A stretch of DNA of 64,000 bases from Gammaproteobacteria bacterium (GCA_022072255.1 JAJVHZ010000027.1:18660-82659), one strand, 5' to 3'. Counted from the stretch's first letter, positions 37,404 to 63,290 are shown. The notes: generated from the letters alone by a model not told the origin. Program-made: numbers and translations.

Positions 37404-38009
37404 CTAAAAGGTTGAGATCTGGTACAGAGGGGCAATCGTGTGAAGGACTGAACTCGCCAACGAGATCGCTCTGAGGAGCTCCGGTATCTGGTCTGTGAGT
37501 ATCCAAGCTGGTTGTGTGGTGAGTTCGGGTGGGAGGAGGTGGGGGTGGTGTTGGAGGATTTGTTGGGTGAGGGTGAGTTGGCTCTGCCAAGTAACGGTGT
37601 GCTTCATGATGGTCCAGGTGATGTGGTGGGTGTGTTGTTGGGTGATGAGGGCTTCGGTGAGAGTTTTTAGGACGGTGGTGTGGCCGGGGCCATGGGGTAG
37701 TGTGGCGTCGAGGTATGCGCGTTCGTATCCGCCTGCGGGGTAGTGGTGGTCGAGGAGTTGTTTGGCTTTTCCGAAGGCTTGTTCTGGGGTGAGGTCTGTC
37801 TTGAGGGGGAGGGCTTCTTTGAACACCAAGGTGGTGAAGGCGGTCAGGCTTTGGTTGAAGGTTTGGTAGTCGGTAGGTTCGGGGTGGGTTTCGAGGAAGG
37901 TGAGGTAGCATTTTTGGATGGGTTCGTCGTAGAGGGTGGCGAGGTGGTTCTCGTCCAGTTCGGCGAGGATCTGTTCCAGGGGGGATGGGTTGGTTTGGGT
38001 GGGGTTCAT
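37404..38009 (-). CDS. hypothetical protein, stand-alone copy of the ~195-aa repeated domain (D1)
   Basis: ATGA overlap with upstream ATPase; aligns by eye with 56436-57023, 57052-57642 and the C-terminus of 52998-54662. Confidence 0.72.
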   Translation of the reverse strand: MNPTQTNPSPLEQILAELDENHLATLYDEPIQKCYLTFLETHPEPTDYQTFNQSLTAFTTLVFKEALPLKTDLTPEQAFGKAKQLLDHHYPAGGYERAYLDATLPHGPGHTTVLKTLTEALITQQHTHHITWTIMKHTVTWQSQLTLTQQILQHHPHLLPPELTTQPAWILTDQIPELLRAISLASSVLHTIAPLYQISTF

Positions 38010-40546
38010 GGGAAGGTGTCGTATTTGAGTTCGGTATGGTTTGTGTCGCCGGTTGCTGTGGGTTCGGTTGCGGGTGGTGGGGTGCTGTATCTGTGTCGGC
38101 TGTTGCTGAGTCGTTTGGCTTCGAGGTATGGCAGGTAGTAGCGGCGGTGGGAGTTTTCGATGATTTGGTCGTGGTGGTGGGTTTCGGGTTGGGGTGGGGC
38201 GTTGAGGGTACTGATTTTTACGATTTCTGTGTGGATGCGGGCGTAGGCTTGGTAGGGGTCGAGGTGGATGATGTCTTTTGCGGTGACTTCTTCTTGGAGT
38301 TCGAGGCTGGCGCGGTGTGCTGATTCGGGGTCGCAGCGCATGATGATGGAGGCTCCGGCTCCGGTGAGGGCTTCTTGTTCGGCGGGTGTGAATTGGCGGC
38401 TGTAGTGGTGGGCGAGTATCCATCCGACTTTGGCTTTGCGGTCTTCGACGAGGCTGTCTTCGATGGCGTCGGTGACGAATTTGTGGGCTTCGTCGGCGTA
38501 GACGAAGAATGGAAGGTTGTCTTCGTATTTTTTGTTTAGGCGTCGTAGTGCGGAGATGTGGAGCATTGCGAATAGTAGGGATCCGAGGATTTGGCAGATC
38601 ATGGGTCCGATGGCTGAGAGGTCGATGAGTAGGATGTGGCCTTTTTCCATGATGTGGGGGATGTCAATTTTGCTTTGGGGGATGGAGAGGGTGAGGCCGA
38701 CGGTGTCGCTGTGGATGAGTTTGCTGAGGAGTCCTTGGGGTGGTTGGAAGGCCATTTTTTCGTAGTTTTCGAAGTCGTTTCTCCAGTATTGTTGGATGTC
38801 GGTGTCGTTGATTGATTTGAGGATTTTGCGGATGAGTGTCCGGCTTTCGTCGGATCCTCGGCGTAGGAGTGTGCTCAGGTCGCGGATGGTGCTGCCGGGG
38901 AGGTGGAGGAGGGCGTGGAAGCCGTAGCGTAGGATGTGTTCCATGCGGTTGCCCCAGGCGTTGTGTTCCATGAGTCCTTTGAAGGCGCCGACGATTTCGT
39001 CGACGGTGCGTCCGAGGTCTTGCAGGGTTCCGATGTCGAGTGGGTTCCAGCAGGGGGCGAAGGCGTGATCTTTCCAGGAGACGTAGACGACGCGGTCGAT
39101 GTGTTCGGGGGTGATGTAGTAGAGGAGTTTGTCGACGAGGGTTCCGTGGGGGTCGAGGACGCAGACGCCGTATCCTTTTGGGATGTCGTCAAGGATCATG
39201 GTGAGCATGGTGGTGCTTTTGCCCATACCGGGGCCGCCTTGGATGTGGATGCTGCGGAAACGCAGGTCTTCGGAGAGGTAGACGGTTTTGTCTTCTCCGG
39301 CGATGTTGGCGGTACCAATGGGGGTGCCTTCTTTTAGAATAGCGTCGGAGGGGATGAAGGGGGTGAGGTGAGTCATGGGGACGTCGTCGCGTTCTAGGGC
39401 GGATTCGGGTGGTAGGTGGACCAGTCCGGTGAGTTCTTGGGAGTTGAGGAGGAATCCTGGCCGGTAGGTGGTCCCCAAGTGCAGCATTTGATGAATCGCA
39501 TCAGGCGGGAAGTTGTCGCCGTAGCCTTGCTCAGTTAGACGATTGAGGGGGAGTCCGCCGTGTTGGAAGACGCACATTGAGGAGTCGAGCGAAATCATAT
39601 CGATGAGACGTTCGCTTGAGGAAGCGAGTCCGATGCGGATGGCGACTGAGAAGAAGGGTTTGTCGTTGTGGGCTTTGTTTTCGATTTCCATGGCTTCCTG
39701 GCGGTTGTCGGCTGATGGGGGGATCAGGGGCCGGTTCTGGGCGAGTGGGTTGTTGAGGGTTTTGATGAAGTGTTCCATATCCCGTAAGACGTCCACGTTG
39801 TGGTGCCAGTTGTGGGTGGGATTGGTGGGTTGGAAGGCTACTTGGTAGAGGCCGATTGCTTCCGTTGGAAGGCGGCCTATGAGGACGATGACTGGTTCCA
39901 GGGTGGAGAATTTTAGCTCGTAGGGTCGTGTGAGTAGGTGCGAGTAGGGGGGATTGGGGAAGTAGTCCAGTAAGTGGATGACCTGGCGATCCATTCGTGG
40001 GTTTCCCCAGAGTGTTTTGTTATCTGGCATGAGGCGGCATTCGGGGTAATGGGCTGCGAACATTCCTTCTAGAACCGGCCAGTCTTTGACAGTGGCAGAG
40101 AACTGGATGTCGACTCGCTCCTTGTTTCCGGCCACGGCGAAGAGGATCCGGTGGGTAAGCCCGCTGATCCCCTTGAGGAAGAGTTCGGATCGGACCCAGT
40201 CGAATGGGTGCTTCGGTGAGATCCATACCCTCCCGGTCTGCCAGACCGGCTCTTCTTCACAGGAAACCGATAGGGGAAAGCGTTGGGCGCTCCCAAAGTC
40301 TTTAGTCAGAACGATCGGTTCGTACCGGGGTTCAAGGTGTACCGGGTACGGATAGATTTCCGGGCTACAACCCTTCTCCATCTCGCCCGAAATGAGCCTT
40401 TCAGCGCTAGACCGCAGGAACTGGGGACGGCTGTACTCCACAATGGCACCGGCGATTGAACCCATGGATCTAGTTTTCTCCCGATCCTCTAGCGGCAGGC
40501 AAGACCTCCACTGTTCGGTTTCGCCTCTCAGGTTACCCCCGTTCAT
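38006..40546 (-). CDS. VirD4/TraD-like coupling-protein ATPase (FtsK-HerA superfamily)
   Basis: Walker A GGPGMGKS, CVLDPHG, WNPL, WGNRMEHIL, Walker B YADEAH, ILAHHY; start uncertain. Confidence 0.8.
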   Translation of the reverse strand: MNGGNLRGETEQWRSCLPLEDREKTRSMGSIAGAIVEYSRPQFLRSSAERLISGEMEKGCSPEIYPYPVHLEPRYEPIVLTKDFGSAQRFPLSVSCEEEPVWQTGRVWISPKHPFDWVRSELFLKGISGLTHRILFAVAGNKERVDIQFSATVKDWPVLEGMFAAHYPECRLMPDNKTLWGNPRMDRQVIHLLDYFPNPPYSHLLTRPYELKFSTLEPVIVLIGRLPTEAIGLYQVAFQPTNPTHNWHHNVDVLRDMEHFIKTLNNPLAQNRPLIPPSADNRQEAMEIENKAHNDKPFFSVAIRIGLASSSERLIDMISLDSSMCVFQHGGLPLNRLTEQGYGDNFPPDAIHQMLHLGTTYRPGFLLNSQELTGLVHLPPESALERDDVPMTHLTPFIPSDAILKEGTPIGTANIAGEDKTVYLSEDLRFRSIHIQGGPGMGKSTTMLTMILDDIPKGYGVCVLDPHGTLVDKLLYYITPEHIDRVVYVSWKDHAFAPCWNPLDIGTLQDLGRTVDEIVGAFKGLMEHNAWGNRMEHILRYGFHALLHLPGSTIRDLSTLLRRGSDESRTLIRKILKSINDTDIQQYWRNDFENYEKMAFQPPQGLLSKLIHSDTVGLTLSIPQSKIDIPHIMEKGHILLIDLSAIGPMICQILGSLLFAMLHISALRRLNKKYEDNLPFFVYADEAHKFVTDAIEDSLVEDRKAKVGWILAHHYSRQFTPAEQEALTGAGASIIMRCDPESAHRASLELQEEVTAKDIIHLDPYQAYARIHTEIVKISTLNAPPQPETHHHDQIIENSHRRYYLPYLEAKRLSNSRHRYSTPPPATEPTATGDTNHTELKYDTFP

Positions 40547-40567
40547 GCCAAATCTGAACTTCAGATG

Positions 40568-40607
40568 AAAAAAAACTCCTTGACCGCCTGAAGGTAATGA
40601 GTATCAT
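40568..40607 (+). promoter_or_regulatory. sigma70-like promoter of the plus-strand ATPase/kinase operon
   Basis: A-tract, TTGACC (40580-85), 16 nt, TATCAT (40602-07); SD AGGAGG before ATG 40729. Confidence 0.55.
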
Positions 40608-40728
40608 TCCTCATTTATTGTCGATATTGTTTGCATGTTTTGTCTCGGTCGCATCGTTTCGGTTTCGTTCAGTTCACACAAACCCTAGGTGTTCGTTTGA
40701 TTTGTCACTGAGGAGGAGGTGTGTAAGG

Positions 40729-42951
40729 ATGACATCTGAAGGGCCGGATATCGCCAAAGAGATTCCTGTCAGTATTGAGGCAATAGGGGACAAGGTACTC
40801 GCATCGCAGTTTCATGTCTCCCGAATTATCACTCCTTTCATCGGGTGGTTGCTGCTAACCTTCGTTCTCTTCGATGTAATGGGAAACATAATAGGATTCC
40901 CGGTTATTACAGGAAGTATCTTCGGTGGGGTTAAGCGAATCAGTGGCACTGATGATCCTTACACATCCCGCCATGGATTCGAAGTCACTAAGCGTGATTC
41001 GGAAAAGAGTCCCCAATTTCGCTGGGTAGCAGTAGTTCATACGCGCGCTGCCGGTGCTGTTTCATTTGGTATTCAATTGGTGATTCTTGTAGCATCCGTC
41101 GGTTTTCTCTACTTCTCTCCTTGGCGCTTTTGGCTTCCTGTAATGTTTTCCACTGACGAATTTGAAAGCGGAGTCTTTGAAAAGATTCCTTTGGTCGGTG
41201 GGAAATTTCGGTCCCTTTATTCGATCATTTCAGAGAGTGGACTCCGGATAGCCCAGGCTGGGATTAAAGAGGATGAAGATCCACACAGTTTTACGATTGG
41301 ATTTCGTGTTTTTCTGTCGGTAATCGTCATTGTCTGCTCAATGATTCTCATGGCTGTGTTGTGGCATGCGTCGGTAATGCTTCTTGTAATCGGCGTATTC
41401 GTTATTGTTTTTGGGGATAGTGCAATGAAGTGTGTTCACCTCTTTTGGCAAAGGATTAGTTCAGATTTCGGATCGTTGTTGGGAATGTATCTCGGTGTCG
41501 CACTGGCCGCAGCATTCTCTCTCCTCATGGGTGCACAATGGGGCCTCTATTACCAATTCCCCTTCCAAGTTTGGTTTTTGGGTGATTTTTTCGTCTTCCG
41601 GTTACTGGAGGTTTTCCTCCTTTCAGCGGTAATCCTGATGCTTTCTGTTCAGTCCCAGGCGGGATTGAAGTGTGCGGTCTTTTATCGTGCCCAGAAGCCA
41701 GAAGCGGGTTTCAGACGGTCTTATCATGTGTTTGATTACCGCAAGGTAGCATCATGGCCTGTGTTTGTTTACCTGGACCCAGACTCGATCACGAAGGCTG
41801 TTGTGTTGCTGCGGAGAGATGATAAGCACTACGAGGTGATCGACCACTCTCTACGGATTCCTTTGATGAGTGGCATATTCACGGTCTTGAATCTGTCAGC
41901 ACTGGAATCTCGTTTGGGGGACACTCGTGTTCGCGTCAAGGATGGAAGAGAGTTTTTCACTTGTGAGGCGGAATACCGAATCAGTCCTCGGTCTTTTGAT
42001 TCTCTCAAGAGCACGATGCTCGGAGAACTTGGTAATTCTCTTCCAGATAGAGCTGTTGGGCTTGTGTTGGATGAGATTTTTAAGAATGAAAAGCCGTTGA
42101 ACCTTTTTAATGACACGTTTGCAAAGGCATTTGTGGAATACTCGAATGGGAAAAATAAGACGGCAAGAGATATCCGCGAGAAATATACGAGTATTGAGGC
42201 CGAGATCCGTGTAGCGAGTATGTTTGTTGATGCTCAGCTCCAAATACCTTCAACTATGGTAGGCGGCGATGTCGGCGGCCTCGCGTTGAGTATTACTGGC
42301 TACAGCCAACTACGGGCAGCAGGGTCCCGCATGCGTGATTTGATTGAAGGGCCACGTGAGGAGTGGAAGTACTATCGTGAAAAGAAAGCTCAAGCCAGGA
42401 CGGAATTACCTGGCGTATTCTTGAATCATCTTCGCAGTCATTTCATGAAGGAATTGATACAGGGCGAGACAACTCCAGGAGATGAGGTGTTAGAGAAGAC
42501 GGCGGATTGTCTTCTGGCTTGCTTTGGGGTTCATCTGGTGGTCAATGATTTTGACTTTGCTCCGGGTCCGTCTAGGGAGTGCGAAAATATGATACAGACG
42601 CTTGAGGCTGGCTTTGCTGCTAAACAGGAGAGGATCGACCAGGAGATCCAACGTCGTGAACAGTCGATGTTGGATTTCTTCCAGCGTCGGATTGAGCGTG
42701 TCGAGGAGAATAAGCGGGAGGTGGTGAATCAATTGATACAGACGGCTCCGCATGTGCTCCCATACCTGTTACAGACTCGCGGTGGTGAAAGGTTGGTAGA
42801 TTATCTTTTGTCATTGGGTGAGTCGGCGTTACGTAATTCGGTTGAGAGTCTATCCCGGATTCCAGCTGATCGACCCGCTGAGATTGAGGCTCAGGTCAAT
42901 GAGCTGGCTGGGGTGGGAGGGGGTGGTGATCTAGGTGGGTCTGGTGCGTAA
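40729..42951 (+). CDS. polytopic membrane protein with C-terminal soluble coiled-coil region
   Basis: About 7-8 hydrophobic segments in the N-half; charged helical C-half (AKQERIDQEIQRREQ..RRIERVEENKRE). Confidence 0.7.
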   Translation: MTSEGPDIAKEIPVSIEAIGDKVLASQFHVSRIITPFIGWLLLTFVLFDVMGNIIGFPVITGSIFGGVKRISGTDDPYTSRHGFEVTKRDSEKSPQFRWVAVVHTRAAGAVSFGIQLVILVASVGFLYFSPWRFWLPVMFSTDEFESGVFEKIPLVGGKFRSLYSIISESGLRIAQAGIKEDEDPHSFTIGFRVFLSVIVIVCSMILMAVLWHASVMLLVIGVFVIVFGDSAMKCVHLFWQRISSDFGSLLGMYLGVALAAAFSLLMGAQWGLYYQFPFQVWFLGDFFVFRLLEVFLLSAVILMLSVQSQAGLKCAVFYRAQKPEAGFRRSYHVFDYRKVASWPVFVYLDPDSITKAVVLLRRDDKHYEVIDHSLRIPLMSGIFTVLNLSALESRLGDTRVRVKDGREFFTCEAEYRISPRSFDSLKSTMLGELGNSLPDRAVGLVLDEIFKNEKPLNLFNDTFAKAFVEYSNGKNKTARDIREKYTSIEAEIRVASMFVDAQLQIPSTMVGGDVGGLALSITGYSQLRAAGSRMRDLIEGPREEWKYYREKKAQARTELPGVFLNHLRSHFMKELIQGETTPGDEVLEKTADCLLACFGVHLVVNDFDFAPGPSRECENMIQTLEAGFAAKQERIDQEIQRREQSMLDFFQRRIERVEENKREVVNQLIQTAPHVLPYLLQTRGGERLVDYLLSLGESALRNSVESLSRIPADRPAEIEAQVNELAGVGGGGDLGGSGA

Positions 42952-42954
42952 AAG

Positions 42955-44130
42955 ATGTGCGCCCAGATTCGGTATCACAGGGAACTGATTGGTAGCGGTC
43001 CAGAACCCCTTTCGGCTGCTTCGTGTGGGAACGCCTTGATGCAGGCAGTTGGTGCGTTTCTCTCCCAGGGGGGAGACCGGTATGCAATGATGCAACTGAG
43101 TCTGGCCAGACAGTCCGAAGACGCGACTCTGGCGTGGTCTCTCTTTGACTCAGATGTTTCCCTGCTGTCCCAGGAATCAGCCCTCTTCGATCTGCTCTTC
43201 TCACGGGAGGATGGCTGGATCAGGACAGACGATGGGATGTCCTCTCCCGATAGGGCCTTCCCGAGTCCGGGTACTTCGTGCTGGACAACCTCACTCGCGC
43301 GCCGGATTCAGTTCCTTGATCTGCCGTTCCGTTTTCCCGCACTTCCCTCATCCCTGCCGAGTCCACAACCAATTGCCACGGGTAAGGGGGTCCCACCGCA
43401 ATCTTCTGCAGGCCGTCCGGATTCAGGGTCGGTTGCCGTCGGCGTCGGAGACCGTCGGCCATCCGCCATGATCTATCGCGGTAAGCGGAGGATTCCCCCA
43501 CTCGGCTTACCGGTGGTTGAGGATACTCTGGTCTCCCCGGTCTGTCTTCCATTCGTTATGGCTTTGCGAGGGGAGAATGCCATAAGGCGGGACTTCCGAA
43601 ATTTTATTCTCCGACTTGCGCCGATGGAGTTGAGGCTCACTTTCCGCGCTCCCGATGCCGAAGGCCTTTTTCAGGACAGGGCCACTTCGACTTATCTTCG
43701 GCAGTGGGTTGGCCGGCTTTTCGAGCCTGGGTCTTCGATGGTCTTCCCTCACTCCAGGGAAGCGTGGTCGTGCTATGGCCAGTATTGGTCTGCGCCTGAA
43801 GACCTCCTCGATGTGGCTATCTCAGTTGTGGCAGCAAGCCGGGATCGGATGCTTGCGCTCGCGCACCTTTTCTCCAGCGTCTTCCTCGCCACCGGTTGTC
43901 TGGGATCTGATCCGGACGGCGTAACTCAGGGAGAGCCCGGTGGGGAGTGTGGGGGCTCCGAGAAGTGGTTTGATGGCCGTGGTTTGCTTTACGACCAAGT
44001 CTATCAAGGATTCATGACGAGGATGCGCCAAAGGTTCACCGTTCAGGAGGCGCTTGTTCTGTCCAACAACCTGGCAGGCGCACTTGCGAGGTTTGGCAGT
44101 TTGAAAGAAGCGGCGGTGAGTGGAGTTTGA
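42955..44130 (+). CDS. hypothetical protein
   Basis: 391-aa ORF packed 3 nt after the previous stop and 18 nt before the ATPase; no motif recognised. Confidence 0.6.
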   Translation: MCAQIRYHRELIGSGPEPLSAASCGNALMQAVGAFLSQGGDRYAMMQLSLARQSEDATLAWSLFDSDVSLLSQESALFDLLFSREDGWIRTDDGMSSPDRAFPSPGTSCWTTSLARRIQFLDLPFRFPALPSSLPSPQPIATGKGVPPQSSAGRPDSGSVAVGVGDRRPSAMIYRGKRRIPPLGLPVVEDTLVSPVCLPFVMALRGENAIRRDFRNFILRLAPMELRLTFRAPDAEGLFQDRATSTYLRQWVGRLFEPGSSMVFPHSREAWSCYGQYWSAPEDLLDVAISVVAASRDRMLALAHLFSSVFLATGCLGSDPDGVTQGEPGGECGGSEKWFDGRGLLYDQVYQGFMTRMRQRFTVQEALVLSNNLAGALARFGSLKEAAVSGV

Positions 44131-44148: not shown

Positions 44149-47100
44149 GTGGTAGCGGTCATGGAGACAGATCTTCCGGAGCGTGGGGAGGGTGTTGCTG
44201 TCTCGGGGGGCCAGTCTGGGCTTCCGGGTGATCCGTTGTTGCGAGTGGAGATTGATCCGGCGGTCGTGAATCCAAGTTGGGTGGCCACGTATGAGTTGTT
44301 GAGTATTCCTGATCCTTCCCGTTATTCGCTTAAGGCGGCGAGTCACGGGAATCCACGGGCCGCGATTGCCAGAGCTCATGAACAAGTGCTTCGTCTTATG
44401 TCTTCCTTTGGTTCCAAGGATGTGGTCTTGAGTCTTCGGTTGCATTTTGATCCGTCGTGCCGTCCGCTTCAGAGACGTTTGCGGGTTTTTCTGCGTATCG
44501 GTTTGAGTGAGAGGATGCCTTCCGAATTGGTGGTGGATCTGGTTGAGAGGGGGCCGTTGTGTCCCTTTTTCGGATTGGAGAGGGTGGTTGAAGGAGGTTT
44601 CCCGAAGGATTGGGATCTTGCTGATTATTGTTCGGGATGGGAGCTCGTTCGTGAGGAGATGTTGTTGCCCAGTTTGTTGGATCGTTCCGATAATCCGAAT
44701 GCAATTTCACTTGGTTATTATCTTCCTGGCCGTTTTTCGGCTTCGAGAGATAATGACGGACTTCTCCTTGACCGGCTTCTTTCGGGTGTTGAATCTCCGG
44801 TGGTAGTGGATCTGATGTTGACGTCTTGGGCAGCGAATGATTTGAGGAGGTCCCAGATTGCTTTGGCTGCTGCTTATCAGAAAGTGAATTCGTTTCGTGA
44901 CTTGGGCAAGAAGCGTATTCGGGGAATTGATCAGCGGGATTCACTGGAAATTCAGGGCTACGAGAAGGATGCCTTGGCGGATGAGGCTGTTCGGTATCAC
45001 CAGCGTTTTCGTGAGTTGTTGTGGAAGCCTTTGCTTCGTTTTCACTTTCGTGTGTTTGGGGTGCATGGGGAGGTTGCCCGGCTTGTGGCTGGTACGTTAG
45101 CTGAGTCTGGTCTAAAGGAGGGGAAGTATTCGCTCCTCCAGATGGAGGCCGGTTTGGATTTGGATGTAGCGAAAGATTCCGTGCTGGCATGCCGTTTTGT
45201 GGCGGTTCCATTCGATCACCAGGTCTGGGTAGGATGGATTTCTGGAGCGCGGGAGAAACCGAAGAGTGTTTGGCGGCACCTGAGTTCCCTGAGCCGGATT
45301 GGGACGGTTGAGGAGTTGGCTGGGGTATTTCGTTTGCCGGTGGGAGGTTTCGGTTCGGCTACGTGTATTCGCATGGATACCGATCCTGATATGGGGCGAA
45401 GGCCGGATTCGTTGATGATCGGGGCGGACCTTGAGAGTGGATTCGATGATTCCTCCTGGGCCTGGAAGCCTACGGCGGATTTGAAGTTGCTGTTCGAGGA
45501 GAGAGAGGCTGCTGTTTCCCATCTTTATCTCCCTTTGTCAGATCTTGCCAAGCACGCCTTTGTCGCGGGTGCGTCGGGGAGCGGTAAGACGACCGCTCTT
45601 TTTCATCTGTTGGTTCAGATGGCGCGTGAGGGTGTTCCATTTCTTGTGATCGAGCCCGCCAAGACGGAGTACCGTATATTGAAGATGTTGGGAGAGCATC
45701 CGGATCCTTTGGTTCAGGATTTTTCGCGCCGGCTTCGCGTTTATACGCCAGGCAAGGAATCGCTTTCTCCGCTTCGATTGAATCCTTTCATTATTCCAAA
45801 AGGAACCGAACCTGATCTGCATCGGGCTAATCTTCTTTCGTGTTTTGAGGCGGCCATGCCATTGGGTGGGCCTTTGCAGGCGTTGCTGGCGGAGGGGATT
45901 GAGCGGGTTTATGAGCTTTGTGATCCTCCGGACTTTCCGCAGATGAAGGATTTGTTTTTGGCGAGTAGGCAAATCCTTGAGGAGAAGTCCTATTCGGGGG
46001 AGGTTCGTGACCACTTGTCGGCGATGATAGAGGTTCGTTTGGGAATGTTGACCAAAGGGGCCATCGGGAAGGTGTTCTCCTCGAAGGATAACCTTCCTGC
46101 CATTCGTGACCTTCTCTCCCTTCCTGTCTTGATCGAATTGGATTCTCTGGCGCCGAATCATGCGTCGCTTTTGACACTTTTTATCCTCACGGCTATTCGT
46201 GAGGATGTGAAGGCGGCGAGGGTGTCGGAGCACGGGGTACTTCATCATGTGACGGTATTGGAGGAAGCCCACAACCTGGTGGGCCGGACGCAGGAGGCAC
46301 GTGCATCAGAGGAAAATGCTGATCCCAAAGCCTATGCGGCGGAATTTGTGACACGAATGCTGGCGGAGATGCGTGCCTTGGGAGAGGGGATGTTGATTGC
46401 GGATCAGCTTCCTTCGGCGGTTGCTCCGGAGGTGGTCAAGAACACGTCCTCGAAATTGGCTCACCGGTTGGTGAGTGTGGATGACCGTGAGGATCTTGGG
46501 GGGGCAATGCTGCTGGATGCAGCGCAGACGGAGGAGATCGCCCGCCTTCAACCTGGGGAGGCGTACTTTTATACCGAAGGTTTGTATCGCCCGCGCAGAG
46601 TCCGGGTGCCGTTTTCTTTGGGCTATCTCGGTCTGGTAAGTGGTTTTCCTCGGGATGCCGCTTTGAGAGCGGTTCTGGAAAGGGAGGACTGGTTTTGGGA
46701 TGGAGCGCTTCAAAGAGGTCGAGAGAAGACCAGAGCCTTGCTTGGCAGGATGGGTGAATGGGTGGATGGAATCCTTCAGTTGAGAACAGACCTTCTCAAG
46801 GAGTTACGGCGGTTCGGGACGTTGTCGAAGGTGGAATCGGATCGTCAAAAGAAGGAGGCGGCCATTTTTGATCATGCTGTGGTTGGCCTTGAGGGGAGGC
46901 ACAAGCAGCTGAATCCGGACAGGCTTTATAGGAAGTATGTGGAAGAGGTTCTTGAGGATCCGGATGTTCGATTGGCCCAGCGGCGAAAGGATTCTGAGTC
47001 TCAGGATTTGGCGGGTCAAGTAAAGATCCGTTGGTCTGGTCTGGTTGAGAAGTGGGGTTCCAATTCGAAGGAGTTGCTTGAGGCGCAGCGGCTTGTGAGG

Positions 47101-47674: not shown

Positions 47675-47678
47675 GCCG

Positions 47679-55309: not shown

Positions 55310-56439
55310 TTTTGGTGTTCCTTGCGGGTTGGTTTGGTGGTGAGGGCTTTGATGAGGTCTTCTTGGTTGATTCCCGCTTCGTTAATGGATTCTTGGAATA
55401 AGGGGTTTTGGCTGATGACGGTGACGACGTTTTGCCATAGGTCGGGGATTCGTGGGTTTTCGCTTTCGTACCATTGGGTTCCGGCGATTTCGCTCATGGT
55501 GGCGAGTGGGATGTTGTAGGTTTCGGCGATTCGTCTGAGGTTGAATGTTCCTTCTGTGAGTTGTCGCAGACACATCTGGATTAGTGAGGGGAGTAATTCT
55601 TTTCCGAATCTTTTGAGTGTGGGGCGTAGGCGTTCGAAGTTTTCGAGTTTTTCTTCGATGACGGCGGTTTCTAGGCGGTGGTGGAGGCCGTCGATGGTGT
55701 TATAGAGTGTTTCTTGGTTGTCGCTAGTGAGGGGGAGGTTTTCGGTGTCGATGTGTTGTGGGAAGCGGAACCTGCCGTCGATTGTTTTTTGGATGGTTTT
55801 TTGGTCAAGTTGTTTTTGGCGGTTGTCTTGAGGGAAGTTTTGTTCGAGCCATTCCCTGATCTTTCTTGCGGTAATGCTTTTGGGGATTCGTAGGTTGATG
55901 GTTCCTTGGGGTGTTTTCCATTGGTATCGTCTTCCGGATGGGTCTTGGATGCGTTGGGCGTCAATGAGTGACAGGCCGTAGTGTCTCCAGACTAAACGTC
56001 CGAGAAGGGTGGCGGTGGTTTGTTCTGCTTCGATTTCTCCGAGTGGGGTGGTTTGGTTTTGTTGGTGGAAGGTGTTGAGGAATGCTTTGTAGTATTTGCG
56101 GCAGTCGACGGGGGGGCGTTTTGTGTCTTCGTGGATTTCGTACCTGGTTCCTGGGAGGGAGATGAATTTGTTGAGTGCGCGGTCGTGGGCTAGGTCGGCG
56201 GCTTCACTGTTGAGTGGTTCATTGCGTATCTGGGCTTCACGTAGTTGATTGAGATAATCCGACAGGATCAGGTTCCTCTTGCTTTTGTATTGAAAGATGC
56301 GGCGTGTGGTGAGGAAGCATTCGAGGGCGGCGGTGTCCGAGTTTTGGACGATTTGTTCGATGAGTTGGTGGGTGGGGAGTGAGCGATATTCTCTTGGGAT
56401 GAGGATGTGTATGGTTGCGGTATTGTTTGTGGTGGTCAT
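55306..56439 (-). CDS. hypothetical protein with C-terminal helix-turn-helix
   Basis: FNLRRIAETYNIPLATMSEIAG HTH-like pattern; ATGA overlaps on both sides. Confidence 0.65.
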   Translation of the reverse strand: MTTTNNTATIHILIPREYRSLPTHQLIEQIVQNSDTAALECFLTTRRIFQYKSKRNLILSDYLNQLREAQIRNEPLNSEAADLAHDRALNKFISLPGTRYEIHEDTKRPPVDCRKYYKAFLNTFHQQNQTTPLGEIEAEQTTATLLGRLVWRHYGLSLIDAQRIQDPSGRRYQWKTPQGTINLRIPKSITARKIREWLEQNFPQDNRQKQLDQKTIQKTIDGRFRFPQHIDTENLPLTSDNQETLYNTIDGLHHRLETAVIEEKLENFERLRPTLKRFGKELLPSLIQMCLRQLTEGTFNLRRIAETYNIPLATMSEIAGTQWYESENPRIPDLWQNVVTVISQNPLFQESINEAGINQEDLIKALTTKPTRKEHQK

Positions 56440-57023
56440 GTTTTTTTCTGGATGGCGTTTCGTAGTGTCATGAGGAGGCGTGGGTGTTGGGCGAGGGCGT
56501 GTGGGAAGTTGATGCGTAGGCGCATGTAGTTGTCTTCGGTGAGGTCTGGGGGGAGGATGTGTTGCCATTTTTGTCCGTATTCGATGGGGATGTCGTACTT
56601 CTTTTCGGTAAGGATTTGTCCCCAGTATTCAGTGACGCGGACGTGTATGAGGTTGTTGGCGATTTTTTCGGCCATGTGTGTGGCAAATTCTTTGAGGACG
56701 CCATAGAGTCCTCCGTTTCTTCCTGTTTGTGCTCGTAGGAATGCTTCTTTGTGGCCGTCGTGTCCGTAGATGGCGTTGAGGTTGTGGATGGCTTGTCCCC
56801 AGTTGATGGTGGGATGGACTTCAAGAGGATTCTTTAGGTCGTGGAGGTGGTTGGTCAGGTGGGCGTGGAATTGTTCCATGACGGTTTTGAATTCGTCCCA
56901 GTCGTCGACGCTTGGTTTGGTGTGGTGGAAGGTGTTGAGGGCTCGGTCTCTGAGTTGAAAGATGGCGTCATAGGTTTGTTCTGGGGAGATGGTTTCGAGG
57001 AAATCGTCGAGGTTGGTTCCCAT
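56436..57023 (-). CDS. hypothetical protein, repeated domain copy D3
   Basis: DDWDEF, GQAIHNLNAIY, GRNGGLYGVL, ILPPDL. Confidence 0.75.
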   Translation of the reverse strand: MGTNLDDFLETISPEQTYDAIFQLRDRALNTFHHTKPSVDDWDEFKTVMEQFHAHLTNHLHDLKNPLEVHPTINWGQAIHNLNAIYGHDGHKEAFLRAQTGRNGGLYGVLKEFATHMAEKIANNLIHVRVTEYWGQILTEKKYDIPIEYGQKWQHILPPDLTEDNYMRLRINFPHALAQHPRLLMTLRNAIQKKT

Positions 57024-57051: not shown

Positions 57052-57642
57052 TTACTGGCGGCTGAAGAGGCTGGTGGTTCGTCTTAGGGCTTCGGTGTAG
57101 CCTCGGACCAGTTCTTGGTAGTCGCTGGCGTATTTCTCTGGTTGGTCGGTACGGATGTACGGTGGCAGGTTGGGGCCGCAGGCTTGGAAGAGTTGGCGGA
57201 TGATGTTGACTTTTTCGTTCCATTCGGTGGGTTTGACGTGGGCGTCGAAGGCTTCGCGAATGTATCGTTCGACGGATTCGGTTTTAAGAGCGTCGGCGAT
57301 TCTGTCGAGGACGCCTCGGAGTCCTGAGTTGGTTCCTTCGCTGGCGTCGCGGAAGGCGGTCATGAGGTTTCCTTGGTGACGCCGGTAGACTTGTTCAAGG
57401 ATTTCCTTGGCGCGTCCGATGGCTTCGATGCGGTTGATTTGAGCACCTCGCGCCACGCAAGTTGTGTAGTGGTGGACGTAGTACTGTCCGATCATGTCAG
57501 AGAAATCGTCAAAGTCTCGGACGGTGTTCGAGCGGCAAATGAATCCCATACGTGCCTCGTCATGAGGGATTCCAACTCTCTGCGCGATCTCTCTTTCCTG
57601 AAGCGCCTTTGTCAGACTCTGAAAAGAACCCATAAGATCCAT
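57052..57642 (-). CDS. hypothetical protein, repeated domain copy D4
   Basis: RDFDDF, GRAKEILEQVY, GTNSGLRGVLD, NLPPYI, PEKYA; SD GGAGG. Confidence 0.75.
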   Translation of the reverse strand: MDLMGSFQSLTKALQEREIAQRVGIPHDEARMGFICRSNTVRDFDDFSDMIGQYYVHHYTTCVARGAQINRIEAIGRAKEILEQVYRRHQGNLMTAFRDASEGTNSGLRGVLDRIADALKTESVERYIREAFDAHVKPTEWNEKVNIIRQLFQACGPNLPPYIRTDQPEKYASDYQELVRGYTEALRRTTSLFSRQ

Positions 57643-58315: not shown

Positions 58316-58431
58316 GCCTCTCCCACGCAGCAACACCTCTATAAAAAACTTCACCACCACCCCAAAGAAACAACACACGCCATAGGGGGGGGTTTTTTGT
58401 CGGGGGTGTGGGGGTGGTGAAGGGGGGACGC

Positions 58432-58923
58432 CTATTTGGCGTCCTGTTGGATTAGTGTCCAGGTGTGGTGTGAACTGTTCCAGTTGTTGGCTCGTTGGAG
58501 CCGTTTCCTGCATCTTTTCAGGAAGTGTTGGCGGCGGGTTCCGGTTGCTGGTTTGTATTGGGGGTTGCATTTGAAGCAGTTCCAGAACACGGTCCCTCTT
58601 GGGGGATCAATGGCAGGTTGAAGAGGTAGTCCGCAGTGGCACCACGCGTGGAAGGTGAGATATATTTCAGTGTTCTCTCTTGTCCTACTCACCTCTACTG
58701 GCTCTGTTTTCCATATGATCAATTCCCAGATAATCTTTCGTATCTCGTTTTTGATTTCATGCAGTCCCGTGTACATGAAGTATTTGTTGAAGGAGTATGG
58801 GTCTCTGTCGGTTACACTCCTCCAGATCAATTCCTGTAATTCTTCGATTTTTTTGATGAACGTTCCGAGGGTGCTCTTCACGTCCTGGGTTTTTTTGTTG
58901 GTTCTTTCGGTTTCTCCTTTCAT
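58432..58923 (-). CDS. fused A+B protein, tandem unit 3 (coiled coil plus CxC/CxxC domain)
   Basis: MKGET start with SD GGAGG; WCHCG..FWNCFKC..ATG..R..FLK; 163 aa equals 80+83. Confidence 0.7.
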   Translation of the reverse strand: MKGETERTNKKTQDVKSTLGTFIKKIEELQELIWRSVTDRDPYSFNKYFMYTGLHEIKNEIRKIIWELIIWKTEPVEVSRTRENTEIYLTFHAWCHCGLPLQPAIDPPRGTVFWNCFKCNPQYKPATGTRRQHFLKRCRKRLQRANNWNSSHHTWTLIQQDAK

Positions 58924-59129
58924 GTTTTTCTTGCCTCCGATCAGTTTCGATGTATTTTCCTTTTTGTGCTGTGTCTTGTTCTGTAAAGGAGATACGGTTT
59001 CTCCTTGTTTTCCAATCACAATGGTGTCAATAGTGGGTGGGGTTCAGCCCGGTCTTGGAATGGGCCCAAACAACCATTGCTTTTTCCCCTTCCCAAAGGG
59101 GGGTTGCGATATCTGCGGAGGGAGACCCC

Positions 59130-59381
59130 CTAAATGGGGTCCTCCTCTAGCAGTTGTTCCGCGTACCATACGGCATATTGGTCTCCGACTTTATCCATAT
59201 ACTCCTGGAATGATTTCAGGAATTGACGGCGGATCGGTCCGGTTGCTCGCGTAAAATGCGGGAAGCACTGAAAGCAATTCCAGAACAGGAATCCCTTTTC
59301 GGCGTTGTAGGCTGGCTCGACTCGCATTCCACAAACGCATTTGCCGGTGAATCGGGAACCAATTCCATAGGGGAAAGTCAT
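59130..59381 (-). CDS. small CxC/CxxC putative Zn-binding protein B, unit 2
   Basis: RFTGKCVCG..EPA..FWNCFQCFP..ATG..RRQFLK; ATGA overlap. Confidence 0.72.
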   Translation of the reverse strand: MTFPYGIGSRFTGKCVCGMRVEPAYNAEKGFLFWNCFQCFPHFTRATGPIRRQFLKSFQEYMDKVGDQYAVWYAEQLLEEDPI

Positions 59382-59620
59382 GCTCTCACCTCCTGGTTTG
59401 CTGCTGCGTTCAGGAATACCATTTCACTCCAGAGTACGCGGATTTTGGTTTCGATCTCTTTCATTCTCATGTGGACATACTGCCCCTGGTCTTCCGGGCC
59501 GGATTCTCCGCTTCTTGCGACGATGGATTCCTTGAGTCTTCTGGCTTCTGCCGCGAGATCGACAAGACGTTTTTCAAAGTCCCGCATTTGTCTTTTGATG
59601 CTTTTGTTTTTTCCTTTCAT
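59378..59620 (-). CDS. 80-aa coiled-coil protein A, unit 2
   Basis: SD GGAGG; MKGKNKSIKRQMRDFEKRLVDLAAEARRL..EVRA matches the ArdC C-terminal extension. Confidence 0.72.
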   Translation of the reverse strand: MKGKNKSIKRQMRDFEKRLVDLAAEARRLKESIVARSGESGPEDQGQYVHMRMKEIETKIRVLWSEMVFLNAAANQEVRA

Positions 59621-59860
59621 GTTTTCGTACCTCCGTTCTGTTTCAATATTCTTCGTTTCTTTTCAGTCCAGACCGGCTTGAAAGCCGGTGACTGAAGAGC
59701 CTGATTTCGTTTCGCCTTTCTATTCACGCGAAGCGTGGTGGCGTCAATCTGTGGCTTATGGGGATCGGTTCCGATTTCAGAACCGATCCAAGGAAGCCAC
59801 GGTTTCCCATTCGGCTTTTGGTTCCAAATGGGTTTGGCCCGATGTGTGCAGAGAGACCCC

Positions 59861-60112
59861 CTAAGTGGGGGTTTCTTGAATCCGTTCCAGAACATACTGG
59901 GCGCCGTCCCAATCTCCGGCGCGGATCATCTGCTTTCTGAATCTCTTCAGAAAGCGCCGCCGACGGCTTCCGGTTGCCTTTGTGTAAATGGGGAAGCAGT
60001 GGAAGCAGTTCCAGAACACTACTCCGAGCCCGGAATGAAAGGCGGGCTCGACGGTTCCACCACAACAACACTTTCCAGTGAAGCGGGCGTAATGCGGGTA
60101 AGGTGAGATCAT
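59861..60112 (-). CDS. small CxC/CxxC putative Zn-binding protein B, unit 1
   Basis: MISPYPHYARFTGKCCCG..FWNCFHCFP; 83 aa, same length as unit 2; ATGA overlap at 60109-60112. Confidence 0.72.
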   Translation of the reverse strand: MISPYPHYARFTGKCCCGGTVEPAFHSGLGVVFWNCFHCFPIYTKATGSRRRRFLKRFRKQMIRAGDWDGAQYVLERIQETPT

Positions 60113-61299
60113 GCTCTCACCTCCGGGTACCCTTCCGCGTTTAGTCGAACCGTTTCTCTCCAGAGTTTGCGGATTTGTGCCTCGATTTCTCCAATCCTCA
60201 TGTAGAGGTATTTCCGGTGGTCTTCCGGGTCTGGTTCTCCTCTTCGTACAAAGAGGCTTTCTTGGAGTCTTCCGGCCTCTGCCGCGAGTTCGGCTAGCCT
60301 GATCTCCAAGTCCTGCATTTGGTTTTCGATACTTTTGGTTTCTCCTTTCATGTTTTCGTACCTCCGATATGTTTCGATTTGTTTCGATTCTTCCCGGTCC
60401 GAACCGGCTTCTAGGCCGGGGACGGAAGAGCATGATTTCTTAGTGAGTGCCTGGTCTGAGCCATGGAGGCCGGCGAGGATTTCTCTCGCCGTGTCCCGGA
60501 TCGCTTCCAGGGAGTGATAAAGTGTCTCTTTGTCTCCCTGGTAGATTTGGATGTAATCGCTCGATGAGGTGCTGGTGTCCAAACCGATTACCGAACAGAC
60601 CACGAAGGCTACGGCTTCGGCTTCCGTTTCTTTCACTGTCTTGGATGGGTTTTTCTCTCCCGGTTTCTGGTGTAGAATTTCATGCGCGAACTCATGCACC
60701 AAAACAGAGAATTCCTCAGCGGCGGGAAGGCCGGGCCGAATCAGGATTTTTCCGCCTGATGAGGCCCCATCGGCGAGCCCTAAGTCCGGCGTGGATTCGA
60801 TGGCGATTCCTCTCTTCCGAATGGTCGCAACCAAGGAAGAAAGGAGTCCGCCTGGATCGCCCCGGACGCGGGCGAATTCCGGAAGGGGTTTTCCCTCTGT
60901 CTGGTTGATGTCAAAAACGTGGGCCGGACGGAATCCGAAAAGGATCTCTTCCTCGGAATCGGATTCCGTCGATTTCCTATTCCGGACGATGGGGGCAAGG
61001 ATGAGAATTCCTTTCTCACCTTTCCGGACGTTTCTTCCCAACGATTTCCAAGTTTGAAACCCGGCCACGCGAGAGGCATCGGGTTTCTGTGTGCCGATCA
61101 AGAAAACATTCCTCAGGCTGTACCGGGTAAATCTCGCCATAGTGGAAAGGTATTCCTTGAGCGTCTGGCTCTTTCCGTTCTCCAGATCCTGCGCGAGCCT
61201 TTCGAGTGCCTGATCGATCAAGCCGTGGGCGCGGGTTACTTTGGGGTGGGGCGCGCGGGGAGGGGCGCGGATGAGTGGCAAAGCAGCGGGGGAGTTCAT
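60109..61299 (-). CDS. ardC: ArdC-like anti-restriction protein (ssDNA-binding domain plus HExxH zincin) with 80-aa C-terminal extension
   Basis: RYSLRNVFLI..VAGFQTWKSLGRNVRKGEKGILILAP, HVFDINQTEG, LVHEFAHEILH, ETEAEAVAFVVC. Confidence 0.85.
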   Translation of the reverse strand: MNSPAALPLIRAPPRAPHPKVTRAHGLIDQALERLAQDLENGKSQTLKEYLSTMARFTRYSLRNVFLIGTQKPDASRVAGFQTWKSLGRNVRKGEKGILILAPIVRNRKSTESDSEEEILFGFRPAHVFDINQTEGKPLPEFARVRGDPGGLLSSLVATIRKRGIAIESTPDLGLADGASSGGKILIRPGLPAAEEFSVLVHEFAHEILHQKPGEKNPSKTVKETEAEAVAFVVCSVIGLDTSTSSSDYIQIYQGDKETLYHSLEAIRDTAREILAGLHGSDQALTKKSCSSVPGLEAGSDREESKQIETYRRYENMKGETKSIENQMQDLEIRLAELAAEAGRLQESLFVRRGEPDPEDHRKYLYMRIGEIEAQIRKLWRETVRLNAEGYPEVRA

Positions 61300-61718: not shown

Positions 61719-61773
61719 GCTTTCACCTCCATTAAGTGAAAAAAACTTGTGCTCACTGGCCGGTAGTGACACT

Positions 61774-62046
61774 CTCCCGAAAGAGACCGCTGAATAAGCC
61801 AGCGGGGAGTCCTGTGACTGGGCCGGGTCTCCAATGAGTGAAGGTTTTTTTCCATTTTTTCCTTTTACCTTTACGGCGGCACGATCGATAAACTTTTAGG
61901 GCCGCGCCCGACCCCGAAGGGGGAAAAGTTTACGTATCGGGCCGCCGTTTGAAGAAAAAATGGAAACAAAATCGAGCGAAGCCGGAGACACGGTCCACCA
62001 AACTGGACTCCCCGATGGCACAAATGTCGGCGGTCTCTTTCGGGAG
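61774..62046. repeat. ~270-bp nested inverted repeat (giant stem-loop) in non-coding DNA
   Basis: Perfect paired arms of 17, 9, 6, 13, 8 and 9 bp arranged concentrically (coordinates in findings). Confidence 0.85.
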
Positions 62047-62351
62047 GCATACAGACGCGTGCGGGTGCGTCCATGCGTTATGTTTCATCGTCACGTAATG
62101 TCGTACGGAGAGATCAAGCGGATGCATAGGGTGGGGTTCTCCCAATGGAATTCGAATTCCGGTCACTGAGACAACTGCTGTGTTTTCAAGTAGTTGGCGT
62201 TGTCCCTTTGTGTCCTTTATTGACGGCATTCTGTCCTCATTGACCCGAATAACGGACACCTTTTGAGGCAATAAGGGACAATGCGGACAGAGACTGAGGA
62301 TGGTCCAGTCAAGGGGTTGTGGGTGGATCCGGTGGAAGATACGTGAATGGT

Positions 62352-63290
62352 TCATTGGATTTCACCTGAGCGATGGTGTTCGAGCCAGGCCCTGCCGAGA
62401 GAAGGTCCCAGGATGGACTCGTTGTCCTCTTTCTGGTTTCCCGCGCGATTCCATACGAATCCGCCGATTCCTCTGGCTTGGATCTGAACCCAGTCGGTGA
62501 TCCAGATGAAATCGTTGGGAGGAACCGACTGGACTAGCCGGGACAACTGACTGGACCGTGTTCGGTCTTGTGCCACGAAGAGCAGCCGGAAACCGTTGAA
62601 CTTCACATTCCATTCGGTCTCGTAGCGCTTGTATGCATTGGATTGAAAGTAGGCTTGGTAGCGCCGGACCTTTTCCGAGATCGCCCCTTGGCTACCAGTG
62701 GCCGTGGAAAGGCCCTCGCTTCCCATGTCGATTTCCACGAAGAAAAGCAGCGCCTTTCCTGATTGGGGCTCCGTGAGTGAAAGAACTCCATCCGGTGTGA
62801 ACCATTCCAGCTCACTTTCCAGATCGGAATCGGCCGCGAATCCCGCAATGTGAGGATGACCCGATTGGAGTGGCTCCAGAAATGGATTGGTGGATGTAAG
62901 GAAGCGCACTTCAAGGAAGGTTGGCACCAAGGCCAGTTCCCGGACGGATATGGCAAACCAGTTTACGGCGAGCTGGTGCTCCAATGTCCGGGTTGAGACC
63001 CACTGAACCCGCTCGATCGAAACATCCGCGCGAAGAAGGGCGCTCTCCTTGAGGAGATTGACAGCCTCTTTGGTGAGGGTGAACACCTTCTCCGGCTGGC
63101 CCCGCTTTCCTCTGAATCCCCTCGTGCTGGAGGCAACAAGTCCCTGTTCCGCCATGCCATCCGCCCAACGCCTGGCCGAACGCACCACCCCGAATCCTAA
63201 GGCGGACATTTGTTCGCTGGTAAGAACCCCGTATTCGACGAGGAGTGCCAAGCGGGTCTTGTCCAGATCGGTAATCTTCGGATGTCCCAT
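62352..63290 (-). CDS. replication-relaxation (Replic_Relax-type) relaxase
   Basis: SD GGAGG; N-terminal winged HTH; EHQLAVNWF, FTPDG..FFVEIDMGSE..KVRRYQAY. Confidence 0.8.
   Translation of the reverse strand: MGHPKITDLDKTRLALLVEYGVLTSEQMSALGFGVVRSARRWADGMAEQGLVASSTRGFRGKRGQPEKVFTLTKEAVNLLKESALLRADVSIERVQWVSTRTLEHQLAVNWFAISVRELALVPTFLEVRFLTSTNPFLEPLQSGHPHIAGFAADSDLESELEWFTPDGVLSLTEPQSGKALLFFVEIDMGSEGLSTATGSQGAISEKVRRYQAYFQSNAYKRYETEWNVKFNGFRLLFVAQDRTRSSQLSRLVQSVPPNDFIWITDWVQIQARGIGGFVWNRAGNQKEDNESILGPSLGRAWLEHHRSGEIQ

Follow-up and report, generated by a model that had tools for sequence, protein, structure and literature searches.

Actinomycete integrative and conjugative elements (AICEs), such as pSAM2 and SLP1, are integrative elements of 10–25 kb with an integrase and a replication initiator or prim-pol of their own, in which an FtsK-family translocase takes the place of a type IV secretion system (T4SS); pSAM2 enters rolling-circle replication after excision. 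Class 8 streptococcal integrative mobilizable elements (IMEs) pair a MOB_C (PF13814) relaxase with a VirD4-type coupling protein (Coluzzi et al. 2017, PMC5357655). The PF13814 family, Replic_Relax, is equated with MOB_C by CONJscan (PMC5357655) and has been assigned to the PD-(D/E)XK fold (PMC3424549). Here, we describe a 64-kb stretch of DNA from a Gammaproteobacteria bacterium (hereafter, the window), in which two FtsK/HerA-type ATPase genes belong to a 13-gene module, a Replic_Relax gene lies nearby, and no mating-pore gene is recognizable. To the reading that this module is the backbone of a family of integrative, probably mobilizable elements whose plus strand is often single-stranded, we give an even chance. 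The window is C9:18660-82659, part of a 94.6-kb contig (C9) in a 4.27-Mb assembly of 128 contigs. Coordinates are window positions unless a contig is named, and L-numbers denote module-bearing or related loci from other genomes or contigs.

A module conserved in content and order, and its strand bias

Species genomes were scanned for the larger of the two ATPases (1005 aa), and all window proteins were then compared by tblastn with the loci found. A homologue of this ATPase occurs in 59 loci from Planctomycetota, Desulfobacterota, Omnitrophota, Gemmatimonadota, Cyanobacteria, and other phyla, and each other member of the module, which comprises 13 genes over 20 kb (37.5–57.7 kb), recurs in 13–27 of them. 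The recurring order begins with the VirB4/HerA-like ATPase, an acidic protein, small proteins, a WD40 protein (where present), and a kinase, and continues with p55306, p54659, a Lon-like protein, p57052, p56436, the second ATPase (ATPase1), and an ~205-aa helical-domain protein; this second half is inverted in some loci, as it is in the window. Two operons make up the module. Operon A runs from the VirB4/HerA-like ATPase gene through those for an acidic coiled-coil protein and at least one small protein to the WD40 and Ser/Thr kinase genes; operon B encodes a helix-turn-helix (HTH) protein, a 216-aa partner, a Lon-helical fusion, two free helical copies, ATPase1, and a fourth helical copy. The module is conserved in both content and order, recurring in more than 25 loci.

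Wherever the DNA beyond the ATPase1 side is visible (L004, L016, L028/L079, L074), an AEP-TOTE primase gene follows. In L074, on a Desulfarculia chromosome, the primase is succeeded by a tyrosine integrase abutting tRNA-Thr and then by housekeeping genes, while LexA, imuB, and dnaE2 lie on the other side of the element. In L074/L075, the module, primase, and integrase fill almost the whole island. The corresponding pair on C9 lies outside the window: the AEP-TOTE primase (C9:7469-8731, minus strand; E 7e-30), present in a single copy in the genome, and a tyrosine integrase (C9:5700-7052, minus strand, as ATPase1), both moderately skewed; a second tyrosine integrase is found at C9:4214-5632. 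Between the module and this primase-integrase pair, a 47-kb metal-efflux island has been inserted, which fills positions 1–37040 and extends past the window start as far as C9:~8.8 kb. It encodes three RND/Cus-Czc sets and a Cu P-type ATPase, and its first gene is for outer-membrane efflux (C9:9274). In the 87%-identical relative L076, similarity to C9 ends at 37465, which is the left border of the skewed block, and the final ~15 codons of the module gene at that border (37404–38009) are unlike those of its relatives; on these grounds, the island is read as a recent insertion. Its lack of skew likewise implies that it must be recent.

G+T enrichment of one strand is familiar from leading-strand codon usage in Borrelia and from the heavy strand of vertebrate mitochondrial DNA (mtDNA). 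The compositional block at 37490–57740, whose plus strand is G+T-rich, matches the conserved module. In 500-nt windows, its GC skew is 0.02–0.57 and its AT skew reaches −0.52; across the genome, GC skew in 2-kb windows has a standard deviation of 0.05 and a 99.9th percentile of 0.34. Fourfold-degenerate sites, all read on the plus strand, are G.60, T.24, C.08, and A.08 in minus-strand genes and G.34, T.33, C.19, and A.14 in plus-strand genes. At third codon positions, minus-strand genes have 50–58% C and 23–35% A, and plus-strand genes 37–45% G and 31–36% T; the GC3 skew of block genes is 0.47–0.76. The bias thus tracks the DNA strand, independent of gene direction. An origin in codon usage or transcription was rejected because plus- and minus-strand genes are oppositely biased on their coding strands. 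Amino acid composition has followed: relative to orthologues, G/V/W/C/F/L are overrepresented in plus-strand genes, and P/T/H/Q/N/K in minus-strand genes. To our knowledge, the bias is among the strongest in bacterial DNA.

In a census of 2814 genome open reading frames (ORFs) of at least 150 aa, 15 are equally extreme, all in mobile-DNA segments and seven of them in the block. The other eight comprise a DUF87 ATPase at the end of C9, its C87 paralogue, two ArdC paralogues on C54, and integrase-linked repeats on C65 and C103; the C103 segment again has the bias in genes of both directions. The same skew is seen in independent metagenome contigs at 99%, 87–89%, and 76% identity (four contigs with the same gene order) and is therefore not an artefact of this assembly. 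It is lineage-specific: in distant loci, the coding GC3 skew is 0.00 ± 0.12 over 212 orthologous genes. Among these 212, the only other strong outlier is a HerA homologue in a Synechococcales metagenome-assembled genome (L057:7569-9752), with a coding GC3 skew of −0.59. No convincing border repeats around the block were found within the window.

Further G+T-biased patches lie at C54:3907-4803 and 18381-19283, C65:66-2090, C103:435-4010, and C87:2-1036; they are ArdC paralogues and repeated integrase-linked segments, 89–93% identical in amino acids between contigs and mostly at contig ends. Several related skewed elements seem to be present in the assembly; on C9, the sign of the skew is the same in every skewed segment, with no flip between them. 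A strongly skewed 672-aa ATPase with a DUF87/TraG P-loop occurs twice (C9:92772-94606 and C87:7676-9694, 92% nucleotide identity), preceding a HEAT-repeat protein on C9 and adjoining TIR/ThsB-like genes on C87. This repeat probably broke the assembly at the C9 end. C87 was rejected as a continuation of C9: the two have 1.75 kb in common (92%) inside the DUF87 ATPase gene, and the flanks differ (a TIR/ThsB gene and a giant FGE-sulfatase protein).

Two related ATPases, a relaxase, and the search for a mating pore

ATPase1 (38006–40546, minus strand) is a soluble TrwB/VirD4-like protein of 846 aa, in which a conserved N-domain of ~400 aa precedes an FtsK/HerA-type P-loop domain with both Walker A (GGPGMGKST) and Walker B (YADEAH) present. 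Its family matches are weak (DUF87, TraD, and CedD), and against Pfam it returns DUF87 alone, at 19.2 bits, under the 23.2 cut-off. Orthologues in L074 and L079 bear precomputed, unmarked TrwB_AAD_bind matches, and the profile of the ATPase1 family matches TrwB (1e9r; E 0.0034) and also HerA. ATPase1 further matches phrog_5156 (E 2.3e-28) and is 27% identical to a coupling protein (T4CP) on C45, which is anchored by transmembrane (TM) segments and whose gene adjoins a Replic_Relax gene. This T4CP and a VirD4 on C8 have two TM segments each, unlike ATPase1.

The second ATPase (44149–47166, plus strand) combines an N-domain of ~450 aa, a P-loop domain with Walker A GASGSGKTT, and a C-terminal coiled coil, and has hundreds of homologues of ~950 aa. 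Family scans gave weak matches to FtsK, HerA, CedD, and mad8. A Foldseek search with its AlphaFold2 (AF2) model, predicted at medium confidence (pLDDT 77.6), placed R388 TrwK/VirB4 first (E 2.4e-11 over ~900 alignment columns, i.e., about the full length), followed by DndH-C and HerA at ~1e-9, with TM-scores of 0.33–0.42.

The first-pass annotation, made from the window alone, had proposed a VirD4-like ATPase without a TM segment and, divergent from it, a HerA/VirB4-like ATPase with a similar motif just before the P-loop domain. Each part of this proposal holds. The two ATPase genes are divergent (40546 and 40597), neither protein has an N-terminal membrane anchor, and both motifs, NSQELTGLVHLP and TVEELAGVFRLP, are confirmed, each being conserved in its own family, with invariant residues E389/P397 and N368/S369/E371/L372/H377/P379. 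A profile-profile alignment of the two families spans 433 columns, the pre-P-loop motif among them, at 94.8% probability (E 5e-8), and the two ATPases are therefore related members of one branch. The evidence supports a genuine conserved pair, one member coupling-protein-like and the other VirB4-like.

The relaxase and ArdC genes of the first-pass annotation are likewise confirmed. The putative MOB_C-type relaxase of the PD-(D/E)XK superfamily (62352–63290, minus strand) matches Replic_Relax with E 1.7e-18 (67.8 bits against a cut-off of 25.3); its ORF extends to 63509, with the likely start at 63290, and the only other copy in the genome is on C45. The ArdC-like protein (60109–61299, minus strand) has an ArdC-N (PF08401; E 1.8e-11) single-stranded DNA (ssDNA)-binding domain and an HExxH-type region. 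Both genes lie 2.5–4.7 kb past the right block border in DNA without GC skew; the window ArdC is outside the skewed block, unlike the two strongly skewed ArdC paralogues on C54. The neighbors of the relaxase gene are ArdC, a 1103-aa methylase-SNF2 protein, a ParB-like protein, and a further DUF87 ATPase. The best explanation is that ArdC, relaxase, methylase-SNF2, and ParB form a neighboring mobile-DNA segment outside the core. Because the ATPases sit on mobile DNA with no recognizable pore, the earlier idea of an atypical DNA-transfer machine or mobilizable element remains the leading reading, but relaxase, ArdC, and ATPases do not form one compact unit, a sharp compositional border running between them.

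Nevertheless, five loci have a Replic_Relax homologue at most 10 kb from the module. The VirB4-like operon begins with Replic_Relax in L028/L079, and in L039 Replic_Relax lies immediately before an ATPase1 orthologue. Given this recurrence and the position at the head of an operon, the association is not pure chance, and the module family can bring a relaxase together with ATPases of the coupling and VirB4 types. C9 itself holds two tyrosine integrases, Replic_Relax, and ATPase1 with no mating-pair-formation (MPF) genes found, the combination by which an IME is recognized. Elsewhere in the assembly, C45:169-8730 (39% GC) encodes a serine recombinase, the 863-aa TM-anchored T4CP (TrwB_AAD_bind, TraG-D_C), a 270-aa Replic_Relax protein, and GmrSD, a set resembling a class 8 IME in a bin that otherwise has 67% or 54% GC.

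When the larger ORFs of the window and of the two C9 flanks were scanned with Pfam, the result agreed with the first-pass annotation that the window has no VirB1/6/8/9/10 or pilin family, and it held for the flanks as well. Its suggestion that pore genes may lie beyond the 64 kb fared less well. Of the canonical MPF cluster and the integrase that it had considered for the DNA just outside, the integrases are there, and no MPF cluster was found in the scanned ORFs of the 94.6-kb contig. Type-specific MPF accessory genes were not found beside the VirB4-like gene, and VirB3/VirB6/VirB8-type membrane partners for it are missing from the window, C9, and the related loci. Genome-wide, no TrbL and no TrbI scored above cut-off, and the sole CagE_TrbE_VirB match (C11:1115-1759) belongs to one VirB4 fragment, a 423-aa frame at the start of C11 (65% GC). 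Two 88%-identical copies of another segment, C8:1473-18488 (L080) and C68:1-10011, encode a 1540-aa MobA/VirD2-like relaxase, a canonical VirD4, an AAA_5 ATPase, and an SLT transglycosylase. Neither the C11 VirB4 nor the C8/C68 VirD4-relaxase set was accepted as a piece of C9: they lie in unskewed DNA of 58–65% GC, and no join to C9 was found. The C8/C68 genes and the C11 fragment are possible parts of a helper T4SS; with T4SS parts elsewhere in the genome, a helper system may exist in the cell.

Further module genes and flanking DNA

The first gene of the block (37404–38009, minus strand) encodes the fourth copy of a ~190-aa helical domain, identified by tblastn and through its L076 orthologue (195 aa, starting MNPTQT); it is the counterpart of the 202–215-aa genes lying after the coupling-like ATPase in L004, L016, and L028 (tblastn). 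C/A-rich DNA at 37273–38423 and 55306–56568 gives rise to spurious P/T/H/R-rich ORF extensions and shadow ORFs, and the true starts of the genes concerned are probably 38009 and 56439, not 38423 and 56568.

Two genes between the ATPases are restricted to close relatives. A polytopic membrane protein of 784 aa (40597–42951, plus strand), with ~7 TM segments in its first 355 aa and a soluble coiled-coil C-terminal half, has homologues in L076, L077, and L014 alone, and a 391-aa protein (42955–44130, plus strand) is specific to the sub-lineage of L013, L014, and L077; neither has a family match. TM prediction finds the large membrane proteins of the ATPase region to be the 784-aa protein and the C-terminus of the kinase, as had been annotated, with the start of the former at 40597 rather than 40729.

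Downstream of the VirB4-like gene, a highly acidic coiled-coil protein of 174 aa (47150–47674, plus strand), with orthologues in 14 loci, is followed by a small protein at 47674–48236 (plus strand; the start is approximate, in an ORF frame of 47298–48236) that lies between it and the WD40 gene, an interval filled by one to three small genes in other loci. The WD40 beta-propeller protein (48233–50215, plus strand; orthologues in 14 loci) carries a C-terminal domain and has Pfam WD40-type matches under every cut-off. The Ser/Thr protein kinase (50212–52956, plus strand; Pkinase E 3.8e-32), with orthologues in 27 loci, is the sole module member above a Pfam curated cut-off; it has a double zinc ribbon (DZR), TPR repeats (TPR_14), and a polytopic C-terminus of 4–5 TM segments.

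On the opposite strand, 52998–54671 encodes a Lon-type protease (Lon_C and LonB matches) fused to the ~190-aa helical domain, its residues 376–541 matching p57052. The Lon-type Ser-Lys dyad is kept, with G103, S105, D107, and K149 invariant in 12 orthologues. Next come p54659 (54659–55309, minus strand; 216 aa, orthologues in 17 loci, no Pfam or PDB sequence match) and p55306 (55306–56439, minus strand; ~377 aa, orthologues in 21 loci), which has a C-terminal HTH-like motif with the consensus FGLSKATxSRFAGS. Two stand-alone helical-domain proteins complete the module: p56436 (56436–57023, minus strand), a paralogue of p57052 by alignment, and p57052 itself (57052–57642, minus strand), the most conserved module gene, with 50–57% identity across phyla. 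The helical domain is common to p57052, p56436, the Lon-like C-terminus, and the protein after ATPase1, and in a representative library its family comprises 1791 clusters at 50% identity, nearly all of them stand-alone proteins of ~192 aa. The AF2 model of p57052 is all-helical (pLDDT 93.3); Foldseek found no PDB fold match for it, and PDB sequence-profile searches with p57052, p55306, and p54659 gave no match. Kinase, WD40, and Lon are conserved module members, and the data neither show nor exclude the earlier notion of ATPases repurposed for signaling.

In two distant loci, L075:6935-10004 and L039:6655-9990, a conserved trio of ~375–413 aa, ~150 aa, and an E1-like ThiF of ~490 aa precedes the VirB4-like gene; ThiF is Pfam-confirmed in L075 only, the L039 trio being matched by ORF size and position. 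The trio hints at a ubiquitin-like conjugation step in some variants.

Right of the block, three tandem diverged units, each an ArdC-tail-like coiled coil with a small CxxC zinc-ribbon ORF, were detected by tblastn self-matches (58432–60433, minus strand); a zinc-ribbon ORF akin to these also occurs in L027, a module carrier. No tRNA genes were found in the window, and its 34–64-kb part has no Rfam matches. The contig GC of the assembly is bimodal, with large contigs at ~66–69% (core ~67%) and C9 at 54%, and the host assignment of C9 is therefore uncertain. C8, C9, C20, C23, C41, C51, and many small contigs have 47–60% GC, and a large accessory fraction or mixed binning is possible.

Alternative readings and known systems

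If the block is the backbone of a mobilizable element, the element would excise and then replicate with its own AEP-TOTE primase. The relaxase and the soluble coupling-like ATPase would handle its DNA and, because no envelope channel is recognizable, exit from the cell is proposed to occur via a helper T4SS or via a pore of unrecognized type. The kinase, WD40, HTH, and Lon genes would serve as a control module. Deamination of exposed single strands depletes C and A in favor of T and G, with the same sign as the leading-strand and mtDNA heavy-strand biases. If one strand is often left unpaired, deamination of its C and A could have led to the G+T excess at synonymous sites, the exposure arising from rolling-circle or strand-displacement replication or from one-strand transfer. 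We think it rather unlikely that the full picture is right in every part, i.e., a widespread element family of Planctomycetota, Desulfobacterota, and other diderm phyla that moves DNA by a relaxase, a soluble coupling-type ATPase, and a VirB4-type ATPase without known pore proteins, under kinase-WD40-Lon control, with the bias as a fossil trace of single-strandedness; such an apparatus for conjugation or DNA export would be of a novel kind.

Several observations weigh against the mobile-element backbone. Transfer, excision, and replication are proposed from the sequence. No N-terminal TM segment is predicted in ATPase1 or its L004 and L016 orthologues, and the 1005-aa protein has no Pfam match to CagE_TrbE_VirB (PF03135). 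The VirB4 assignment hangs on a medium-confidence model and low TM-scores, with HerA and DndH about two orders of magnitude behind. The kinase tail is the only polytopic membrane protein of the conserved core, and the L075 kinase lacks one. On a 1.42-Mb contig, L078 has operon A alone, with no operon B within 10 kb; its surroundings include kinase-FGE-sulfatase and kinase-HSP70 fusions. Eight cyanobacterial genomes and one from Lachnospiraceae carry HerA homologues but no helical-domain gene. PLSDB plasmids do not contain the full module; among them, distant DUF87 relatives of the ATPase domain are found in uninformative contexts, and no p57052 homologue occurs. The first-pass annotation had suggested looking for an integrase and att sites outside the window. 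C9 has two integrases there; for the L074/L075 element, the 12 kb on its left yielded no tRNA-Thr-derived att direct repeat of 14 nt or longer. Finally, the AEP-TOTE family was defined by Pfam from, and named after, a conflict system.

The last point belongs to the main alternative, which we consider possible, if doubtful, namely that the module is a multi-component defence (conflict) system carried as cargo by integrative islands. Invading DNA would be detected or translocated by the ATPases, signaling would fall to the kinase and WD40 protein, and the Lon effector would be recruited via the shared helical domain, the primase, integrase, and relaxase neighbors merely reflecting the carrier islands. 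Kinase, WD40, Lon protease, and HerA-type ATPases are typical of defence systems too, and the top PADLOC matches are defence HerA, mad8, mad6, PD-T4-6 kinases, and CARF-Lon, yet these are generic domains at weak scores, and none of the PADLOC system models fits. Sir2-HerA, DUF4297-HerA, and DndH are also among the Foldseek matches, but a nuclease, Sir2, and other usual HerA partners are not present. The patchy spread across phyla, the occurrence of operon A without operon B, the type I restriction-modification system and CBASS adjoining L003, the E1-like ThiF before the ATPase in L075 (with a gene of matching size and position in L039), and the conflict-system origin of the AEP-TOTE definition all agree with defence cargo. 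On the other side, ATPase1 sits on the coupling-protein branch and recurs with MOB_C relaxases, the L074/L075 island is almost filled by module, primase, and integrase and so looks like backbone rather than cargo, and a defence role leaves the strand bias unexplained.

Two described conflict systems were rejected on gene content. MADS is defined by an eight-gene set with a methyltransferase and the MAD3-MAD4 and MAD7-MAD8 ATPase-nuclease pairs; the module has weak mad8 matches (E 4e-14, 7e-6), a generic mad6 kinase match, and no methyltransferase or nuclease. For the TOTE conflict system (TPR, OB, TBP, and effector), the AEP-TOTE domain alone was found; no OB or TBP family occurs in any module protein, so that the TPR-OB fusion and the TBP-like proteins are missing.

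It is clearly unlikely that the module and a MOB_C relaxase make up a self-sufficient conjugation system of a new MPF type, with a channel formed by the kinase tail, the 784-aa membrane protein, and small unannotated proteins unrelated to known VirB. The relaxase and the coupling-type and VirB4-type ATPases are the three conjugative hallmark enzymes, together in the window and compactly so in L079, but most loci are without a relaxase. A polytopic membrane protein gene does directly precede the VirB4-like gene in the sub-lineage of the window; the membrane proteins are not conserved across the family, however, both ATPases are soluble, and the module has no VirB3-, VirB6-, or VirB8-like partners, pilin, or transglycosylase.

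It is very unlikely that the element is a provirus or satellite and that its FtsK/HerA-type ATPases load DNA into a particle, possibly in single-stranded form, which would also account for the strand bias. An integrase with an AEP primase is a common satellite backbone, and one-strand bias is known in ssDNA phages. ATPase1 matches phrog_5156 as noted above, and the VirB4-like protein weakly matches a terminase-type PHROG, but PHROG families include many misassigned prophage-region genes, Pfam and PHROGs scans found no capsid, portal, coat, or lysis gene, and the genes run in both directions. That the block is an assembly or binning artefact with an accidental gene association is scarcely credible: the bin GC is bimodal (core ~67%, C9 54%, many contigs 50–58%) and several skewed segments lie at contig ends, yet four independent metagenome contigs have the same gene order and skew at 76–99% identity, the gene order is conserved across phyla, and all ORFs are intact.

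Should the module prove to move DNA, transfer machineries would be more varied than is now recognized; a defence function would instead make it a new multi-enzyme system of that kind. Little has been described of the mobile elements of Planctomycetota, Desulfobacterota, and related uncultured groups, and CONJscan and PADLOC would report at most an orphan relaxase at such a locus. A strand bias limited to mobile-element backbones would offer a sequence-only marker for single-stranded passage and a means of dating cargo insertions. The element described here bears copper and heavy-metal efflux genes, in a wastewater-type community.

Set beside the known systems, the C9 locus resembles class 8 IMEs in its integrase, its Replic_Relax/MOB_C relaxase, its own coupling-type ATPase, and the lack of a mating pore, and C45 of the same genome has their textbook-like layout, with a serine recombinase, a TM-anchored T4CP, and Replic_Relax. 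In contrast, ATPase1 is soluble with a 400-aa N-domain, the recombinase is of the tyrosine type, an AEP primase and a second, VirB4-like ATPase are present, ~9 further conserved module genes (kinase, WD40, Lon, helical domain) have no counterpart in class 8 IMEs, and the relaxase is missing from most module loci. AICEs are alike in integrative size class, integrase, prim-pol, and the use of an FtsK-family translocase in place of a T4SS; unlike them, the module resides in diderm hosts and combines TrwB-like and VirB4-like ATPases with a signaling/protease module, and no resemblance to TraB or Spd proteins was seen, although no search aimed at them was made. Plasmid R388 provides the best structural match of the 1005-aa ATPase (TrwK/VirB4) and the profile match of ATPase1 (TrwB/VirD4; PDB 7o42, 8rtd, 1e9r), but neither CagE_TrbE_VirB nor T4SS-DNA_transf reaches its cut-off, the TM-scores are 0.33–0.42, ATPase1 has no TM anchor, and VirB3/6/8/10 are missing. 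The HerA defence systems (Sir2-HerA/Nezha, DUF4297-HerA) and the MAD7-MAD8 pair of MADS have a HerA-type P-loop domain as well, and MADS also has a kinase, whereas the module differs in its N-domain and gene set and has no Sir2, DUF4297, nuclease, or methyltransferase partner. As in Borrelia and mtDNA, one strand is G+T-enriched at synonymous sites irrespective of gene direction, and amino acid usage is shifted; here, however, the bias is confined to a mobile-element backbone of ~20 kb within unskewed DNA, and it is stronger.

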